Virus record (IMG/VR): IMGVR_UViG_3300033177_000258
Length of the DNA stretch: 64,000 nt
Origin: a virus
Taxonomy: Duplodnaviria > Caudoviricetes
Reading direction: 5' to 3' (one strand)
Shown: positions 49,015 through 57,599 of the stretch, piece after piece
Layout of the letters: the number at the start of each line of letters is the position of its first letter
Position numbering within the stretch: position 1 is the first letter of the stretch
The notes under the pieces: model-generated
Databases searched by the model: none
Told to the model about the DNA's origin: nothing
What the model saw: only the letters and a program-made list of their open reading frames with translations
Position numbers and translations under genes: made by a program

Positions 49015-50610
49015 ATGGCGGAAATCATCACAGCCAAGCAGACCGGCCAGGGGCAATTCAAGATGCTCCTGCGGCAGGACGTTCTCGCCGGCCATCGGGA
49101 GTTGGCGATGGGGGGCCAAGGGACCAATCTCTTTGGCGGCAAAGCGCGCGCCGGGCTCTTCGACACCATCAACACCTCATACTCCGGGGGCGGCACCGAC
49201 GCCACCGGCCTGTTCCAGATTCCAATTTCTTCCACTGGCGGCGACCCGTTCTTGGAGTGGCAGAAGCGCTGCGACTATGTGCTGAAGCTCTACTACTGGG
49301 ATGCCGTCGTGGGCACCAGCATTGACACCCTGTGCGACCTCATCTCTGCCGGTTGCCGCGTCGTGCTTTCCGGCAAGGAAGCTACCAACAAGAAGCGCAG
49401 CAGCGGCAATGTCGCCGACTTCTACAACTGGGTGGAGACCATCGGCCTCAACGACCTGATGCGCTGGTCCATCCGCGACCATACCCTGTTCGGCCGCGCC
49501 GTCCCCATCCGCCTGGGCGAGGTAGACGGCAAGAACAGGTTCTACACCCTGTACAACCCCGCCCACTGCGCCGTGCTCGGCGCCCTCAATGTGCAGTTCG
49601 ATGACATGCTTCAGCCCGCACAGGACACCAGCAACATCATCAAGGTGGGCGTGCCGGCCGACGTTCTCAAGCCACAGAACCTCACCTACATGGGCCTGCA
49701 GAACGAGAGCGAGTACAAGCCACCGCCGTGGATGAAGCCGTTCAGCGTGGGGAGCAAGGACTACTACGTCTTCGACCCCAATGTGGTCAACTTCATTGAC
49801 CGCAAGAAGCAACCCTACTCGCGCTACCCCGTGCCGTTCCTGCTGCGCGCCAGCTTCTCGTACCGCACCAAGCGCATCATGCAGCTCATGGACGAAGCGA
49901 CCGCCGAGGACATGGTGAACTGCATCGTGCTGGTCACGGTGGGCAACGACAAGTACCCGGCGAACGTGAAGCAGATTCGCGAAATCCAGCGCGCGTTCGA
50001 GACGGACAAGCGCAGCTTCACCGTGTACTGGAACCACACGCTCAATGTCCAGATGTTGCGCCCACCGGCCGGTGAGATTCTCGGTCGCGACAAGTACGAG
50101 GCCGTCAACGCCGAGCTCTATGCTGGCATCGGCGTCCCCATGTTCCTCGTTGACGCATCGGCGGGCGGGGGCGGCAGCGGCTACAGCAACCAGTGGGTCC
50201 AGGTCGAAGTCCTGTTGCGGCGCCTGGATGTTGCCCGGCTCGAAGTCAAGGCGTTCTGGGAGCGCGAGCTCAACGCCGTAGCCCAGAAGTTCGGCATCAA
50301 GGAACGCGTCCACATCGTGTTCGACAAGGTGGACCTGCGACCACAGGACCGCTTCAAGGCCATCGTACTCGGTCTCCGGCATTTGGGCCTCATCTCGGGC
50401 CAGACAGCGTTGGAAGAGGCGGGCCACGACCCGGCCACGGAAATCGCCCGTCTTGAGGAAGAGCTTGAGTTCCAGAAGAAGGGTCTCTTCATCTCTCAGC
50501 AGACCCAGACCAAGATGGCGCAGGACCCCGGACGGCCGCCGAGCGGCCCCGGCCAGGACTACCCTCCGGGCCGGCAGCCGACAGGCGACCAACCCACTCC
50601 ACAGGCATAA
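49015..50610 (+). CDS. portal protein
   Basis: 531 aa directly after terL; RKKQPYSRYPVPFL, LVTVGNDKYPA, GLISGQTALEEAG. Confidence 0.8.
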   Translation: MAEIITAKQTGQGQFKMLLRQDVLAGHRELAMGGQGTNLFGGKARAGLFDTINTSYSGGGTDATGLFQIPISSTGGDPFLEWQKRCDYVLKLYYWDAVVGTSIDTLCDLISAGCRVVLSGKEATNKKRSSGNVADFYNWVETIGLNDLMRWSIRDHTLFGRAVPIRLGEVDGKNRFYTLYNPAHCAVLGALNVQFDDMLQPAQDTSNIIKVGVPADVLKPQNLTYMGLQNESEYKPPPWMKPFSVGSKDYYVFDPNVVNFIDRKKQPYSRYPVPFLLRASFSYRTKRIMQLMDEATAEDMVNCIVLVTVGNDKYPANVKQIREIQRAFETDKRSFTVYWNHTLNVQMLRPPAGEILGRDKYEAVNAELYAGIGVPMFLVDASAGGGGSGYSNQWVQVEVLLRRLDVARLEVKAFWERELNAVAQKFGIKERVHIVFDKVDLRPQDRFKAIVLGLRHLGLISGQTALEEAGHDPATEIARLEEELEFQKKGLFISQQTQTKMAQDPGRPPSGPGQDYPPGRQPTGDQPTPQA

Positions 50611-50838
50611 GTGGCCGTTCTTGCCTGACACGACCGAGAAATGACGGAATACTTCCACTGTGGAGTTTGCACCGGATGCGTCTCCGCCTACGGCGCGCGA
50701 AGTCTCAACGAGATTTCGGGTTGGCCCGTACCATAACGGGATGGTGTCGTATGCACCTTGACACTTGAGCGTATCAGGTTGCGACAGAGAAGCGTCTGTC
50801 GCGCAAAACTCTCAGCGTGTGGGCACAATAAAGCCCAA

Positions 50839-50947
50839 AAGTATCCTGGGGTCAAGCTCCAGGTAGTTCCGGGGGGCGCCCGGCAAGTAGCTCGTGAAAG
50901 CGAGAAGTCGCACAAGCGGCAGCGTCACATGTCTTACGTCCTGCACC
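50839..50947 (+). ncRNA. orphan copy of the TnpB omegaRNA-like 3' scaffold plus putative guide
   Basis: About 88% identical to 56416-56505 with structure-preserving changes; no tnpB attached. Confidence 0.7.
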
Positions 50948-50973
50948 GAACTTCTTCCAGAAGAGGTCATTTA

Positions 50974-53547
50974 ATGCCCGAAACACAGCAGCACATCAAA
51001 GTGCTATCGGCACCCATTGACCTGACCCCGGTAGTGGCCGACAACTGGACGCAGCTCTACATGAGTTATGTCCTGTGTCATGCGCTGCCGGCCATTAACG
51101 CCAATAGCGATAGCTGGACCCCGGCCACCCTGGCCAACTCATTCAAGTCCGTCATCCACAGCCCGTTCAACATCGAGCACTGGGACACCGACATCGTGGG
51201 CCACACCTACGACGCCGCCCTCATCGAGCAGGACGGGCAGGTCTTCATCGTCGGCGCCGCCGTCATCTACCGCGACATCTTCTACTGCCTCGCGCACGAC
51301 CTGCAGAACAACGAGGAAGAGGGCAACAACTGGCGCGTCAGCATGGAGTGCTACTTCGATAAGGTGGCGCTCTCCTACAAGGGGCGCACGTACACCGAGA
51401 AGAGTGAACGCTGGAAAGAGCTCTCACCCTACATGGGCGCGCTCTACGACGGCAAGCCCGTCGTGCGGCTCCTCGGTGGTGCGGAGGATGACTCTCGCGT
51501 CTTCTTCAGCGGCGCCGCGCTGGTCAAGGTCCCCGCCGACACGAACGCGCGCATCCTCTCCGTCAAGTACGTTGACAACGATGGCAAGGCCGCCGAGAAG
51601 ACCTACGACGCATCGGTGGCGTCCCGCATCATCCGCGTCTCGCCCGAGCCGGTTGTCTTGTCGCGCGGCAGTCTGGCTACGGCTAGCGATGTCTCCCGTC
51701 GCATCGAAGAGTTGCGCGAGACCGTGGCCGAGCGCCGCGCCGCGAACTCCATTTCCAACATCTGCCCCCTCAGCTACGGGGACTGCGCCATGGCGAAGCC
51801 GAGCGCGGACGGCCTGGCCTGCCTGAACTTCGACCCCGTGTCGGCGACTTGCAGCAACTACGACCCCGGCACCGAACCACTGGATATAACCCCCATCGTG
51901 GATGTCATCGAGCAGCAGAGTTCCGTCAGCCCCGAGCCGGCTGAGGGGTCTGCTTTGTCGGGCTTCGAGAACGACCTGTACAAGCTGCAGGTATCCGAGA
52001 CGGACGCCGGCGTCATTCTCCAAGTCCTCATCAAGAACCCGGACGGCTCCTGGTCCGAGCACGAAAGCAACACCGTCCCACACGACATCGCAGGACAGCG
52101 CATCGAAGAGTGGGTCACGGTACTAGCTGACGGCCTGGACGATGTAGGCGAACTGGTTGGCGAGCTCGATGAAGCGATGGCGGCCGAAGCCGGCATGTTC
52201 ATCATCAGCGACAGCACTGACGCAGCCGTATGGACGCAGAAGTACGTCAACGACCTTCCTGACGCGGCTTTCGCCGGTCTCCTGCCGGGCGGCAAGAAGG
52301 ACGAGGGCGGCAACACTGCTCCCCGCGCCAAGCGGAAGCTCCCCCATCATGATGCTTCGGTCAAGAAGTCCGACGAGAATGGCAGTGTGGGCCTTGCCCC
52401 TCTGCGCAACGCGTTGGCGCGTCTGCCGATGACGCAGTGCCCGAGCAGCATGAAGAAGCGCATGAAGTCGCACCTCGCTGCACACGCTAAGGTGTTGCTC
52501 AAGGGCGATAGTGGCAAAAGTTCTCTGACACAGGCCACAGATACACGGAATACTTCTGACACGAGAGGTGACACGGCAATGCCTATGACCACTGAAGACT
52601 TCAAGCAGATGCTCGACGAGAGCGTCGCCACCGCTATCAAGCCCATCGGCGACAAGCTCGAAACCTTCGCCAGCGGACTCGGCGAGGTCCAGGAAGAGCT
52701 CAAGTCGCGCGGCAGCCAGCTCGACGGACTGCTGACCGCCCAGCGCACCGAGACCCGCCTGGCCCAGCTCGACCCGCTCCCGATTACGGACGATGTGCGC
52801 GCCCTGGCCAACGACATGAGCGACGAGATGTGGGGCAAGTACGTCGCTTCATCCCAGCCGTTCATCCAGGCCGCGAAGGACGCCGCCGCAGCCGCCCAGG
52901 CCGAGACGGAGACCGCCCAGGCCGAGACGGAGACCGCCCAGGCCGAGACTGAGACCCAGACCGAGACGCCCGCCGATGGCGGCGAAGCCCAGGCCCAGGC
53001 CCAGACCGAGACCCAGAACGAGACCCCCGCTGAGGGCGGCGAGGCCCAGGCCGAGACTGAGACCCAGACCGAGACGCCCGCCGATGGCGGCGAAGCCCAG
53101 GCCCAGACCGAGACCCAGACCGAGACCCAGACCGAGACCCCCGCTGAGGGCGGCGAGGCCCAGGCCGAGACTGAGACCCAGACCGAGACGCCCGCCGATG
53201 GCGGCGAAGCCCAGGCCCAGGCCGAGACCCAGACCGAGACCCTCGCTGAGGGTGGCGAGGCCCAGGCCGAGACCGAGACGCAGGACGAGGAAGCCAGCGC
53301 CCAGACCGAAGGTGGCGAAGGCGGCGAGGCTCAGGCCTCCCAGCAGCAGCCACCGGCCGGCGCCCAACTCCCCGTGACCAGCGGCGGCGGCGGCAGCGCG
53401 CAGAGCATGTTCGTCTTCCGTGGCCCTGGCGGCGAGACCGCTGCGGGCGGCTCAGTCGGCGAAGTGTCCGCGAAGGGTAGCTACGAGGCCCTGACCCAGG
53501 GCTACCAGAAGCTGTGGCACGAGCAGCTCAAGTCGTCCGACGAGTAG
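50974..53547 (+). CDS. prohead protease/scaffold-like protein
   Basis: NANSDSW..PFNIEH..IVGH..WRVSMECYF..FSGAALVKVPAD; acidic low-complexity C-term; position between portal and capsid. Confidence 0.75.
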   Translation: MPETQQHIKVLSAPIDLTPVVADNWTQLYMSYVLCHALPAINANSDSWTPATLANSFKSVIHSPFNIEHWDTDIVGHTYDAALIEQDGQVFIVGAAVIYRDIFYCLAHDLQNNEEEGNNWRVSMECYFDKVALSYKGRTYTEKSERWKELSPYMGALYDGKPVVRLLGGAEDDSRVFFSGAALVKVPADTNARILSVKYVDNDGKAAEKTYDASVASRIIRVSPEPVVLSRGSLATASDVSRRIEELRETVAERRAANSISNICPLSYGDCAMAKPSADGLACLNFDPVSATCSNYDPGTEPLDITPIVDVIEQQSSVSPEPAEGSALSGFENDLYKLQVSETDAGVILQVLIKNPDGSWSEHESNTVPHDIAGQRIEEWVTVLADGLDDVGELVGELDEAMAAEAGMFIISDSTDAAVWTQKYVNDLPDAAFAGLLPGGKKDEGGNTAPRAKRKLPHHDASVKKSDENGSVGLAPLRNALARLPMTQCPSSMKKRMKSHLAAHAKVLLKGDSGKSSLTQATDTRNTSDTRGDTAMPMTTEDFKQMLDESVATAIKPIGDKLETFASGLGEVQEELKSRGSQLDGLLTAQRTETRLAQLDPLPITDDVRALANDMSDEMWGKYVASSQPFIQAAKDAAAAAQAETETAQAETETAQAETETQTETPADGGEAQAQAQTETQNETPAEGGEAQAETETQTETPADGGEAQAQTETQTETQTETPAEGGEAQAETETQTETPADGGEAQAQAETQTETLAEGGEAQAETETQDEEASAQTEGGEGGEAQASQQQPPAGAQLPVTSGGGGSAQSMFVFRGPGGETAAGGSVGEVSAKGSYEALTQGYQKLWHEQLKSSDE
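52579..53547 (+). CDS. probable nested in-frame scaffolding protein
   Basis: Internal CGGAATACTTC at 52546, GAGAGGTG RBS and in-frame ATG at 52579. Confidence 0.6.
   Translation: MPMTTEDFKQMLDESVATAIKPIGDKLETFASGLGEVQEELKSRGSQLDGLLTAQRTETRLAQLDPLPITDDVRALANDMSDEMWGKYVASSQPFIQAAKDAAAAAQAETETAQAETETAQAETETQTETPADGGEAQAQAQTETQNETPAEGGEAQAETETQTETPADGGEAQAQTETQTETQTETPAEGGEAQAETETQTETPADGGEAQAQAETQTETLAEGGEAQAETETQDEEASAQTEGGEGGEAQASQQQPPAGAQLPVTSGGGGSAQSMFVFRGPGGETAAGGSVGEVSAKGSYEALTQGYQKLWHEQLKSSDE
52894..53340 (+). repeat. coding repeats (AQAETETQTETPA(D/E)GGE)n
   Basis: Near-identical in-frame units. Confidence 0.9.
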
Positions 53548-53642
53548 TACCTGACCAAGGCAGCAACCAGTCGTTTGACCGATAGACGTTCCCAATACCC
53601 GCCACTTTAGTGGCGGAGCATCCTGAGCACGAGGTGTAACCA

Positions 53643-54200
53643 ATGGCTCGCAAGTTCCAGAGGATTCTTGGTGGGTATGAGGCTCCGTTCTTCAAGACGG
53701 AGAGCGGCTTCATCCCCAACGGTGCCTCCTTGGTGGAAGCGGGTCTGGCCGTCATGTACAAGTCCGGTTCTCCGGTCGCTGACATTGACGAAGCCCAGCC
53801 CATCGTCCTGAGCGACGGTACTTCCGCCATCGGGCTCCTGAACCAGGATGTTACCCCGTCCCGTGCCGCCTCTACCCTCGGGTATGTGGTCGGCTCCAAG
53901 ACGGAAGGTAACTTCCGACGCCGCCTGACGCACGAGGCCGAAGAAGGCGACGTGTGCGCCGTAACCATCGGCCCGGCCCACTGCATCATCCCCGACGAGT
54001 GTTACGTCGGGACCCCGGCCCCCAGCAATCCGCTCTACGTGACGAACGCAGGCAAGCTCACCGCTGCCTACAACGCCACCCCGAGTGCGACCGAAGGCGG
54101 CCTCATGGCGGCGGTCTGTGAGAGCGCCCCCACGGCAGATGGAAACATCCGTATCCTTCTGCTGGGACCCTACGCTACATACTACAGCTACGTGGCCTAA
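53643..54200 (+). CDS. head decoration-like structural protein
   Basis: Position before capsid; LYVTNAGKLT. Confidence 0.6.
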   Translation: MARKFQRILGGYEAPFFKTESGFIPNGASLVEAGLAVMYKSGSPVADIDEAQPIVLSDGTSAIGLLNQDVTPSRAASTLGYVVGSKTEGNFRRRLTHEAEEGDVCAVTIGPAHCIIPDECYVGTPAPSNPLYVTNAGKLTAAYNATPSATEGGLMAAVCESAPTADGNIRILLLGPYATYYSYVA

Positions 54201-54217
54201 CAGGAGGTAGATGAGTA

Positions 54218-55174
54218 ATGAGCAAGACAGCCTTCCAGCGCAAGCGCATCGCCTCCTTCTTCAACCCGAAGCTGGCAGACAATGACATCAAGGCGGGCCT
54301 CGCTGCCGCCGTAGCCAGCCCCGACGAGTTCAGGAAGTGGGCCGCCAGTCTGACTGACCCCATCGTCATCGGACTGGACGACATGAGCACCGTGCGCGGC
54401 ATCTTCTCCGTCCAGTCGTTCTCGGTCGGCCAGGAGATTTCGTTCCCGGTCTTCAACAAGGACGAACTGGTGAGCCAGATTTGGACTGTGCCGCAGCTCT
54501 ACAGCCAGCCCACTCAGCTCCCCATCGCGGACATCGCGTACCCGACCACGTATGAGCTCGGCACCTCCATGGAGTGGCCGAAGCGCATGCAGCAGGACGG
54601 ACGCATTGATGTGGTCAACATGTGCCTCCGTCTCATCAGCGAGGCCATCGCCGCCGCCGAGGAAGCCTCCGGCTGGGCGCTCCTGAAGACCGCATCCACC
54701 GCCGCCAACACCGCCGTGCAGCTCGATGACGGGGCCGCGGGTCACGACTCGTTCTCGCCTCAGCTCCTGAAGCTCATGCTAGCCCGGATGATGGAACACC
54801 CCACCAACCCGCGCCAGCAGATGGGCCGGCAGCTCACCGACATCTACGGCGCGCCGACGCGCCTCCTCGACACCATTGACTGGACTTCCATGTACGGCAA
54901 CGCCGAGAAGTCTGCCGTCATCCGCAGCGGGGCCATTGACCGCGTGATGGGCGTCCAGCTCACCCCGTACTGGGGCCTGACCCAGTACGAGCTCTACGGG
55001 TTCGACCTGAGCGCCAAGGAAGAGGCCTTCAACATGGCTCTCCAGGGCGCCTTCGAGTCCGAAGAGCTGGTCGGGGCCGCCGACAACTGGCGCGTGGGTG
55101 TCCGGGTCCGCGAGATTATCGGCTTCCTCGTGAAGGATGCCCGGTACCTCCTCAAGGGTATCGTGGGCACGTAG
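54218..55174 (+). CDS. major capsid protein
   Basis: 318 aa, strong RBS AGGAGGT, position, followed by terminator. Confidence 0.75.
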   Translation: MSKTAFQRKRIASFFNPKLADNDIKAGLAAAVASPDEFRKWAASLTDPIVIGLDDMSTVRGIFSVQSFSVGQEISFPVFNKDELVSQIWTVPQLYSQPTQLPIADIAYPTTYELGTSMEWPKRMQQDGRIDVVNMCLRLISEAIAAAEEASGWALLKTASTAANTAVQLDDGAAGHDSFSPQLLKLMLARMMEHPTNPRQQMGRQLTDIYGAPTRLLDTIDWTSMYGNAEKSAVIRSGAIDRVMGVQLTPYWGLTQYELYGFDLSAKEEAFNMALQGAFESEELVGAADNWRVGVRVREIIGFLVKDARYLLKGIVGT

Positions 55175-55204
55175 TTAGCCACGAGCCAGACAGCAGGATA
55201 GGAG

Positions 55205-55233
55205 AGGGGGCGTCGCGAGGCGCCCCCTTTTTT
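55205..55233 (+). terminator. intrinsic terminator
   Basis: AGGGGGCGTC-GCGA-GGCGCCCCCT-TTTTT. Confidence 0.85.
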
Positions 55234-55271
55234 GCGCCCGGACCCTGCGGTACGGAATACTTCAAGTACCA

Positions 55272-56493
55272 ATGCCAACCGCTTACAGGTCTGTAACCAT
55301 TGCCAACCGCTTACAGGTCTGTAACCATTGACTGGCTCCCCCGCTCGCAGGCCGAGTGGGCTACATTCACGGCTGCCCGCCGTGAAGCTGGCCGACTCTG
55401 GTCCGACTTGGTAGAGCGCCATCTGCGCATCCGTCGCCGCCAACTCAAGTGGCCGTCAGAAAAGCGCTGGCGCAAATGGGCCAAAGGCAAGTACCCCAAT
55501 CTCCATAGCCAGTCCGTGCAACTAATCATATCCGAGTTCTGCGAAGCACTTGCTTCGGCAGCTACCCTGCGCCGCAATGGGCACCCAGAGGCCAACTACC
55601 CACATAAGCCTCGTGAGTTCCATGGGGTCCCGCATACGAACCAGGGCGCGGTGGTGCGGGATGCCAACTTGCGGTTGTCCAATGGTTCTGCCGGCTATCT
55701 CTACATCCCGCTCCCGCGTACCATTGTTCTTCCTGGCCGACTTATGGAGGCCAGACTCACCTATGGTGCAGTAATCTTGGTCTGCCAATGTGAAGCCCAG
55801 ATTACCCCGACCGGCCCCATTCTCGGCATAGACCTCGGCGTCAATACGCTCCTCGCCGCCACAGATGGCCAGACCGCAGTTCTCGTCTCGGGTCGCGAAG
55901 CAAAAGCCACAGTCCAATGGCGCGCTAAGCGTCTGGCGTCTCTCCGCAGTAAGCAGTCCAACTGTCACCGGGGCTCCCGTCAGTATGGCCGGCTCCAGCG
56001 CCGCAAGCATAAGCTGCTGAAGAAGTCTGAGAACCGAGTCAAAGACCTCACTCACAAGGCTACGCGCACGATTGCGGACGCGTTCCCAGGAGCTAAGTGT
56101 TACGTCGGCGAGCCGTTCAATGACGCCGCTCAGAAGCTCGGCAGACGCCAGGCTCAACAGGTTTCAGAAGCCTGCAATTCTCGCATTATTACGCAACTCG
56201 ACTACAAGACGGCCGGTGCCATTACGGTAGGCGAGGCGTATAGTTCCCAAACGTGTCCCGTTTGCGGAACTCGGAACAAGTGTCGGCGAACCTACCGCTG
56301 TTGTGACTGCGGCTTTACTGCCCATCGTGACGTGGTGGGTTCCGCCAACATCCGCTGCATCGGGATGCGCGGCGAGCTTGTTCCAGGCTGTGACGTGCCT
56401 AACGTCTGGACCTACAAGTATCCTGGGGTCATCGCTCCAGGTAGTTCCGGGGGACGCCCGGCATGTAGCTCGCGCAAGCGAGAAGCCGCTTAG
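55272..56493 (+). CDS. tnpB: TnpB RNA-guided nuclease (IS200/IS605 family); ATG frame disrupted by a 28-bp duplication, alternative TTG start at 55300
   Basis: LHSQSVQ, GIDLGVN (RuvC-I), VGEP, EAYSSQTCPVCG..CCDCG, HRDVVGSANI (RuvC-III). Confidence 0.9.
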
Positions 56494-56525
56494 GCGGTAG
56501 CGTCAAGACGCCCCCGCTTCTCTAT
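56416..56525 (+). ncRNA. omegaRNA (right-end RNA) 3' scaffold and putative guide of tnpB
   Basis: Hairpin series overlapping the tnpB 3' end, ending GCCGC-TTAG-GCGGT..CGTCAA. Confidence 0.7.
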
Positions 56526-56564
56526 CGCGGAATACTTCATAGAGACACTACGGAGGGTTCGGCA

Positions 56565-57599
56565 ATGGCAACCATCACCGTCTACCAAGGACAGAACGCA
56601 ACCCTCGAAGTGGCGTTTCGCACCACAGCCGGTGTCAATGTGCCGGTCTACAAGACGGCCGGGGGTGCCGAGGGCGTCAACGTGGTCATCAAGCGCGGCG
56701 GGGTGTCCATGCTCACCAGCACGGGGTCTGGCTCAGATGGTGTCTACTCTTTCCAGAACACCTTCTACCATGGGCAGTGGGAAGAGGGCACCTACAATGT
56801 GACGTTCAGTGGCTTCAACGGTTCCGGCACGGCCGTCTCCATGAGCGCCGAGCTCGTCATCCTCAAGAGCTACGTCTTCACCCCGAGCGGCAACCAATAC
56901 TTCATCGCCGACATCATCCCCTTCTTGGAGGAAGCCATCGGCAATGGCCCCCATTCCGCCATGGGGGAAATGGCGTTCGGCGCGTCTAACGGCACCAACA
57001 GGCGCTTCTCTGTCATGGGGAATAACCTGGTGCCTGGCTCTGAAACCGTGACGAAGATGGCGGCCAGCGGCACCCAGACCGGCTTCACGGCGGGGGCCCA
57101 GAGCAACGGCTACACCGCCGATTACGACAACGGCGTCTTCGACCTCACGGCGGCGCCCGCTGCCGGCGACAGCATCATCGTCAGCTACTTCCACAAGACC
57201 TACAGCCGAGGGCAGCTCACGCAGGCCGCAATGCGCGCCTGTACCGCGCTATCCAACCGTGGGCTCCTGGCAGTATCCAACGTCAATGGCCAACCCACCA
57301 TAGACACCAACCCCGCCACTATCTTGGGCATGCTCATGCTCTCCGCCCAGATTGCGGTCCTGGAAATGCAGGTCCAGGTGGACGCGCGCCGCAGCTTCGA
57401 CTTCACTGACGCCGGCCTGTCCATGAAGCGGAGCAGCATCCCGCGCAATGAGGCCCAGGTGCTCAAGGACTTCAAGCAGCAGTTGGAAGACCAGGTATGC
57501 GCTGCGGCCATGGACACCGTGGCTACCGCGCCGCCCGCCGACGCCGACCGTCCCGAGCCCCAGGTGATGATAAGCACCATCTTCGAGCTTAATCCGTAA
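56565..57599 (+). CDS. virion structural protein, head-tail adaptor candidate
   Basis: Position; beta-rich N-term and helical C-term FDFTDAGLSMKRS. Confidence 0.6.
   Translation: MATITVYQGQNATLEVAFRTTAGVNVPVYKTAGGAEGVNVVIKRGGVSMLTSTGSGSDGVYSFQNTFYHGQWEEGTYNVTFSGFNGSGTAVSMSAELVILKSYVFTPSGNQYFIADIIPFLEEAIGNGPHSAMGEMAFGASNGTNRRFSVMGNNLVPGSETVTKMAASGTQTGFTAGAQSNGYTADYDNGVFDLTAAPAAGDSIIVSYFHKTYSRGQLTQAAMRACTALSNRGLLAVSNVNGQPTIDTNPATILGMLMLSAQIAVLEMQVQVDARRSFDFTDAGLSMKRSSIPRNEAQVLKDFKQQLEDQVCAAAMDTVATAPPADADRPEPQVMISTIFELNP

Follow-up and report, generated by a model that had tools for sequence, protein, structure and literature searches.

A transposase-less tnpB gene and a nuclease-less omegaRNA module among the structural genes of a large phage

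We analysed 64,000 nucleotides of DNA from a virus of the Caudoviricetes (Duplodnaviria; IMG/VR record IMGVR_UViG_3300033177_000258), a stretch referred to here as the window, which carries a tnpB gene between the capsid gene and the next structural gene. The 3' end of tnpB overlaps a predicted guide-RNA (omegaRNA) module, and a second copy of this module, which has no nuclease gene and is here called the orphan, lies between the portal and protease/scaffold genes. We refer to tnpB with its module as cassette 1 and to the orphan with the structured RNA preceding it as cassette 2; their features are collected in Table 1. The window forms part of a phage genome of ~195–215 kb that was recovered in several metagenomes. 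Its genes in this region run terminase, portal, (orphan), protease/scaffold, a 185-aa protein, capsid, (tnpB) and more structural genes, an order shared with phages whose portal and capsid proteins are 51–69% and 46–76% identical, respectively. A search of GenBank phage DNA gave no match, and a capsid search of IMG/VR and JGI metagenomes returned fragments at 29% identity only.

Table 1. Features of the two cassettes and of the sequences that flank them
Feature	Position in window	Strand	Remarks
Motif CGGAATACTTC	50645..50655	+	Exact; between portal and protease/scaffold genes; adjoins orphan cassette
Structured leader, 183 nt	50656..50838	+	Inserted block from ~50664
Orphan omegaRNA 3' module, no open reading frame	50839..50927	+	All predicted helices and pseudoknot kept
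Orphan guide-position flank CATGTCTTACGTCCTGCACC	50928..50947	+	In 5' untranslated region of protease/scaffold gene (ATG 50974)
Capsid terminator	55206..55233	+	5' arm GGGGGCGTC, loop GCGA, 3' arm GGCGCCCCC, T6; read from sequence
Motif CGGAATACTTC	55253..55263	+	8 nt upstream of original tnpB ATG (55272); nearly leaderless
28-bp tandem duplication	55268..55323	+	ATG 55272 out of frame; TTG 55300 left as start
tnpB, 397 aa	55300..56493	+	RuvC and zinc-finger motifs
Mosaic tract in tnpB	55959..56121	+	163 nt; 36 of 40 differences between window and strain L008
tnpB-linked omegaRNA 3' module	56416..56505	+	Overlaps last 26 tnpB codons
tnpB guide-position flank AGACGCCCCCGCTTCTCTATCG	56506..56527	+	Second copy of terminator 3' arm, with ancestral tail
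Motif CGGAATACTTC, second copy at tnpB locus	56528..56538	+	Serves downstream structural gene, ATG 56565

A shared guide-RNA module and an apparently intact TnpB

The module linked to tnpB is formed by the last 78 nt of the gene and the 12 nt that follow. An earlier reading of the window, made from its letters alone (hereafter the sequence-only reading), had noticed that these 90 nt recur without an open reading frame (ORF). Alignment of 56416–56505 with 50839–50927 bears this out, the two copies differing by 10 substitutions and one indel (~88% identity). Both end in GCGTCA, where the similarity stops as that reading had claimed, and they then diverge into different flanks (AGACGCCCCCGC... 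versus CATGTCTTACGT...). Neither blastn nor a covariance model found a third copy in the 64-kb window.

From 5' to 3' the module consists of AAGTATCC, helix 1, GGTAGTTC, helix 2, CAAGTAGCTC, helix 3, GAGAAGCC, helix 4 and a short tail ending in GTCA. Relatives of tnpB have the same architecture at their 3' ends, whether they come from two viral contigs, from metagenome-assembled genomes (MAGs) of Chloroflexota and Deinococcus or from a 197-kb phage, and every member of the family shows a sharp boundary at GTCA. The consensus fold has 23 predicted pairs, 11 of them with compensatory changes, and a predicted pseudoknot joins the helix-2 loop to the five bases before the terminal A. The pseudoknot covaries as three complementary variants (GACGC/GCGTC, GACAC/GTGTC and GAACC/GGTTC) and is fully paired (5/5) in 10 of the 11 sequences. 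Judged by this covariation, the repeat is a genuine guide-RNA module with four helices and a pseudoknot. No comparably conserved 5' domain emerged from the linked omegaRNAs, for which the consensus fold was weak and many pairs were broken. Directly 3' of the terminal GTCA, 10 of 11 family members have C, among them the orphan (50928), and the tnpB-linked copy of the window (56506) has A; the conserved C may be part of the scaffold or of a transposon-end motif. In an Ardenticatenaceae MAG (L012:4118–4400 and L013:4115–4330) helix 3 is enlarged by tandem GTCCCCTACGGGGGA-type units, and these modules still end in the conserved pseudoknot tail.

The orphan was scored with a covariance model trained on tnpB-linked copies only, from which it had been excluded. 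The linked copies scored 80.8–94.8 bits (84.6 for that of the window), an independent linked copy 76.2 and the orphan 73.6. As had been proposed, the differences between the two window copies either lie in loops and linkers (seven of them) or preserve pairing, and the orphan breaks no pair: an A-to-G change in the pseudoknot loop yields a G-U pair, and within helices either C opposite G has become U or U has become C, which restores a G-C pair. When 10 random substitutions with the same mix of transitions and transversions were simulated, all 26 pairs survived in 0.5% of trials (p = 0.005). The comparison shows selection on the predicted structure along the path between the two module copies. 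The orphan also carries the pseudoknot variant of the window clade and would therefore be cognate to the window TnpB. It differs from the linked copies at two positions that are invariant among them (A39G and C71U).

The tnpB ORF matches the OrfB_IS605 (PF01385, 6.7e-12) and Cas12f1-like_TNB (PF07282, 2.4e-14) families, and its product matches the chains of solved ISDra2 TnpB (2e-12). D178, E271, D344 and the CxxC...CxxC motif are all present, and of the 116 columns conserved at 95% or more, two deviate, the family median being one. The protein looks intact and the gene is apparently functional. Among 121 close homologs the RuvC-II column holds E in 59 and K in 54, and D178, D344 and E312, the last of which directly precedes the zinc finger, are invariant. 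The catalytic glutamate may have been relocated in this clade, which perhaps belongs to the branch of RuvC-II-rearranged TnpBs described in PMC10691335.

Close strains differ at tnpB in two respects. The 28-bp tandem duplication at its 5' end, in whose second copy ATG has become TTG, yields a 19-codon out-of-frame upstream ORF. Two independent assemblies, L005 and L006, also have the duplication, and a 97.8%-identical strain, L008, lacks it; its effect could be attenuating or switch-like. Comparison of the window with L008 shows a difference of one base in the capsid gene and of two in the gene following tnpB. Their differences in tnpB itself are mostly synonymous (25 versus 14) and cluster in the mosaic tract of Table 1, which includes E271K. 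Such a tract indicates exchange, presumably gene conversion, with another tnpB copy; a paralog elsewhere in the same genome (L007, described below) is not the donor. All close strains recovered retain tnpB.

Insertion of both cassettes among the structural genes

The motif CGGAATACTTC occurs in seven exact copies in the window, against 0.43 expected, all on the + strand in the interval 46.3–62.2 kb. It includes a -10-like AATACT, is kept at equivalent positions in related phages, often directly 3' of terminators, and is confined to the structural module, and it is a reasonable candidate for the structural-gene (late) promoter. The sequence-only reading had tied both units to late expression. 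Their position behind the motif is as it described, and their late expression would hang on the predicted promoter activity. The copy next to cassette 2 is ancestral, being found at the same position in the related phages L020, L021 and L010. No motif occurs in the capsid-to-next-gene interval of L021 and L010. At the tnpB locus of the window, 38 nt separate the end of the terminator T-run (55233) from the original ATG and hold the motif, in agreement with the gap of about 40 bp that had been described. Relatives of the tnpB family have a -10 element 6–10 nt before the start; in the window the phage motif occupies that spot.

Comparison with related phages shows both loci to be polymorphic for insertion. 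The portal-to-protease gap measures 363 nt in the window, whereas L020, L021 and L010 have gaps of 77, 65 and 103 nt, respectively, all of which hold the motif without the leader or the orphan module. Likewise, the gap from the capsid gene to the next gene is 1390 nt in the window versus 107 nt in L021 and 114 nt in L010. The comparison takes in three relatives with short gaps and the terminator of a fourth (L009), all of them diverged (identities of 46–76% for the capsid and 59–69% for the portal) and without an exact guide match. As far as these relatives indicate the ancestral state, both cassettes are recent, lineage-specific insertions. The sequence-only reading had named two observations that would count against its own interpretation; of these, empty sites do occur in relatives, but an insertion sequence (IS) left end common to the two loci does not.

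The junctions of cassette 1 involve the capsid terminator, which a consensus terminator scan did not call. Both of its arms match the terminator of L009, a phage whose capsid is 76% identical and in which an intact terminator follows the capsid gene; the 3' arm and tail there, GGGCGCCCCCGCTTTCTCTAA, resemble the 22-nt guide flank of tnpB, AGACGCCCCCGCTTCTCTATCG. On this alignment the tnpB guide is the ancestral 3' arm and tail of the capsid terminator, and its guide RNA would therefore match the uninterrupted allele. A complete terminator is kept to the left of tnpB, and the 3' arm is therefore present twice. The two copies form an imperfect 10-nt direct repeat around the cassette (55218–55227 and 56506–56515; AGGCGCCCCC and AGACGCCCCC). 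We also considered a diverged duplicate of the guide to the left of each cassette and rejected it, the signal being marginal for tnpB (a 10-mer, p = 0.07) and absent for the orphan (p = 0.28) and the L007 paralog (p = 0.94).

Cassette 2 comprises ~175 nt of structured RNA and the 89-nt omegaRNA module and begins ~10 nt 3' of the ancestral motif. Its left flank, 50633–50663, is homologous to L020 (p<0.0003), which therefore places the start of the inserted block near 50664. Since it lies in the leader of the protease/scaffold mRNA, the cassette would be co-transcribed with that message. Its 5' part adopts a predicted multibranch fold closed by a long-range stem (z = -2.55 versus shuffles), and the claim that the orphan possesses a structured 5' part of its own is upheld. 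A search of Rfam with 50000–57000 gave no match at E<=1, and comparisons of nucleotides, proteins and profiles revealed no similarity of the 5' part to the coding sequence of tnpB; no fetched locus resembled it either. The idea that it is decayed tnpB was discarded: tblastn and hidden Markov model matches cover the module tail only, and global alignments are no better than shuffles, for which reason a CxVC...RD.VV collinearity seen by eye was dropped as well. Similarity to the tnpB copy jumps from none to ~90% at 50839, and this abrupt onset suggests a breakpoint there over gradual decay.

Neither cassette is accompanied by a recognisable transposase: with the TnpA proteins of related MAGs as queries, the window and 13 kb from elsewhere in its genome (L007), together 77 kb of ~200 kb, gave no Y1 TnpA-like sequence at E<0.3, which agrees with the earlier description of a tnpB without tnpA. 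Three other TnpB-bearing viral records, one of them the 197-kb phage, likewise yielded no Y1 TnpA, and two host-like MAGs have 11 and 3. Two tnpB-linked relatives, L001 and L014, have in common a left end consisting of two hairpins ~75 nt upstream of tnpB (GGGCTTTAGCC...GTGGATGAAA...), with TTAC 6–7 nt 5' of it. In the window, the capsid stop codon and the ATG are 97 nt apart, an interval that has no space for this left end and holds no counterpart to it. Cassette 1 is thus without a left end of this recognisable type, which was either lost or never present.

Homing, erosion and other explanations

Apart from their own sites, the guides have no match in the window (for the orphan flank, none longer than 10 nt). 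In IMG/VR they have 13 and 3 exact 16–17-mer matches, none of which extends into the flanks and several of which lie in unrelated terminators; we take these matches to be chance. The explanation that we favour, and to which we would give roughly an even chance, is that both cassettes are insertions from one IS200/IS605-family TnpB element, that TnpB mediates TnpA-independent homing or exclusion of competitors, and that the orphan is a rider resembling PATEs, the protein-less IS605 derivatives discussed below. During late infection TnpB would load its own omegaRNA, processed from the predicted late transcript, and it might also take up the orphan in trans. Each complex would recognise, in the genome of a co-infecting relative, the uninterrupted form of the site at which its cassette is inserted. 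Repair of the resulting break would use the genome that bears the cassette as template, or the competitor might simply suffer damage. The outcome would be TnpA-independent homing, and with it drive, or marker exclusion, as for free-standing phage homing endonucleases, and the orphan would be either a non-autonomous PATE-like rider or an inert remnant.

Several points weigh against this explanation. Homing copies a cassette to the same site, and the arrival of the family at three loci (twice in the window and once in L007) is not accounted for. The duplicated terminator arm at cassette 1 is not predicted by IS605 insertion, the two left junctions have no obvious common motif, and the right flank of the orphan could be aligned to no relative. 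A near-identical empty allele was not found among the relatives, L009 being off at two of the first three guide positions and by one indel. The split of the RuvC-II column between E and K means that catalytic competence is not simply readable from the sequence, and the 28-bp duplication, by displacing the ATG, probably lowers TnpB translation in this strain. The structure-preserving differences between the modules could predate the loss of the ORF, and it does not follow from them that selection persisted afterwards. Finally, the full-length gene, the 5'-truncated L007 copy and the module on its own form a decay series that fits plain erosion equally well.

The rival that survives best builds on this last point and holds that the units are inert remnants, with tnpB a passenger IS fragment from a Chloroflexota-type host and the orphan the deletion leftover of a second copy. 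Right ends are kept in all three copies of the series, the module of the truncated paralog has one broken stem-2 pair, the full copy has had its ATG displaced, and the orphan has changed at positions 39 and 71, which linked copies hold invariant. Moreover, the closest tnpB homologs are found in Chloroflexota MAGs that also carry TnpA. We nevertheless regard inert remnants as somewhat unlikely, given that conservation of the full-length protein matches that of typical members of its family and that tnpB is kept in every close strain recovered. Erosion also sits poorly with ten substitutions in the orphan and not one broken pair, with the lack of residual similarity directly upstream of the orphan module, and with the position of both units exactly behind predicted promoter motifs, in sense orientation.

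A wider form of the homing explanation is unlikely, and we offer it as speculation: TnpB would be an RNA-guided homing or exclusion nuclease for which nuclease-less omegaRNA modules, dispersed among late transcripts, act as additional guides in trans. One nuclease gene would thereby drive several loci or exclude competitors at several sites, a distributed arrangement resembling a CRISPR array and made up of transposon right ends.

The sequence-only reading had instead preferred a domesticated multi-guide TnpB, in which two guides would be directed at unrelated targets in the host or in rival elements to the benefit of the phage. One nuclease gene accompanied in the window by two scaffolds with different flanks, phage-type expression signals and the lack of both TnpA and a left end all speak for it. 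Different guides are, however, no evidence of domestication, because any two IS605-type right ends show them. The guides are the flanks of the insertions, that of tnpB being the ancestral terminator arm, and no target emerged from the window or, beyond chance matches, from IMG/VR. Both units are absent from relatives and are therefore recent and site-specific, not a conserved system. We consider domestication of this kind highly improbable, and the alternative that the same reading had mentioned, a non-autonomous IS derivative, comes closer to the evidence. Least probable of all is a cis-acting leader, whereby the orphan would stabilise or regulate the protease/scaffold mRNA, possibly through binding or processing by TnpB and with no DNA targeting: the orphan does lie inside the 5' untranslated region and starts near the expected transcript start, a long-range stem closes off its 5' domain, and TnpB is reported to process its own transcript (PMC10278001), but relatives express the same gene from a leader of 25–40 nt without such an element, and the idea rests purely on inference.

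Known systems and further copies

Cassette 1 resembles ISDra2-type IS200/IS605 TnpB in its OrfB_IS605 and TNB domains, its RuvC D...E...D residues and C4 zinc finger, in a scaffold that overlaps the 3' end of the gene, in a predicted pseudoknot adjoining the guide and in a guide formed by the DNA flanking the right end. Unlike that type, it lacks TnpA and left-end hairpins, sits in a phage late operon with its promoter replaced by the phage structural-gene motif, and is a member of a clade with E or K as the canonical RuvC-II residue and with an additional, invariant Glu at 312. To our knowledge, keeping a transposon in place is the only natural role demonstrated for TnpB. TldR, an immobilised TnpB relative with a guide RNA, bears some likeness to the window protein and was ruled out, since the window TnpB keeps its catalytic Asp residues and full C-terminus and the guides match their own flanks only.

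In bacteria, PATEs encode omegaRNAs and need TnpB in trans (Meers et al., 10.1101/2023.03.14.532601). The orphan is similar in being an omegaRNA without a nuclease gene, which would need TnpB in trans from the same genome. It is dissimilar in that PATEs retain both transposon ends and can be mobilised by TnpA, whereas the orphan is a right-end module only, joined to an unrelated 5' RNA and situated in a phage mRNA leader. Free-standing phage homing endonucleases (T4 Seg and Mob; intronless homing) share with the cassettes an intergenic position in the orientation of the neighbouring genes, presence or absence among syntenic relatives, expression from phage promoters (here predicted) and the expectation that they cut the cassette-less allele (PMC13565253). 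In the window, by contrast, recognition would be RNA-guided, with self and non-self distinguished by an insertion that splits the target-adjacent motif (TAM) from the target. TnpA-independent spread of IS605 driven by TnpB has been shown for multicopy plasmids (PMC11870625, as cited in PMC13565253, which uses the term 'non-restorative homing') and only proposed for co-infecting phages (PMC13565253). As outlined in that citation, the plasmid drive likewise works by cutting the empty orthologous site and repairing it from the occupied copy with no transposase; what sets the window phage apart is its additional, nuclease-less second locus.

The locus offers a test system: a viral tnpB without transposase or left end and fused to a predicted late promoter, with identifiable empty alleles in relatives and, in the same genome, a nuclease-less module whose predicted structure is intact. 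Should TnpB cut the empty alleles and load the orphan, this would amount to RNA-guided homing between viruses. It would also document a natural transition in which a nuclease that had a single guide in each element comes to use several, a matter relevant to the origin of CRISPR-Cas12 arrays. If not, the locus documents the erosion of an IS605 right end in a phage genome.

The paralog in the same genome (L007:6001–7038) is a 5'-truncated tnpB, ~85 N-terminal residues short, which carries the module with three differences from the tnpB-linked copy of the window, one of them breaking a helix-2 pair, and is followed by a third distinct flank. Its missing 5' part is apparently overlapped by a minus-strand ORF, as judged by eye, and the TCA that closes its right end forms the stop codon of a convergent SNF2-type helicase gene. 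L007 further carries a tnpB from another family (L007:3621–4743, 368 aa), which starts 6 nt after a one-mismatch variant of the motif, CGGGATACTTC; fusion to the predicted promoter is therefore not limited to the window tnpB.

Beyond this genome, a 197-kb record with terminal repeats (IMGVR_UViG_3300027908_000001; L097/G005) has three tnpB genes, of which one is linked to an omegaRNA of this family, and lacks a Y1 TnpA. It is a complete large phage, apparently unrelated and with no match to the portal of the window phage, and transposase-less tnpB genes may be recurrent in large phages. Scanning IMG/VR with a loose omegaRNA pattern gave mostly chance matches and three real ones, none in a record with an orphan copy.

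Within the 857-aa protease/scaffold ORF, an intragenic copy of the motif stands 23 nt upstream of an in-frame ATG (window 52546–53547), which suggests a nested scaffold gene. The same part of the window (52883–53340) contains acidic tandem repeats with periodicities of 12, 39 and 51 nt.

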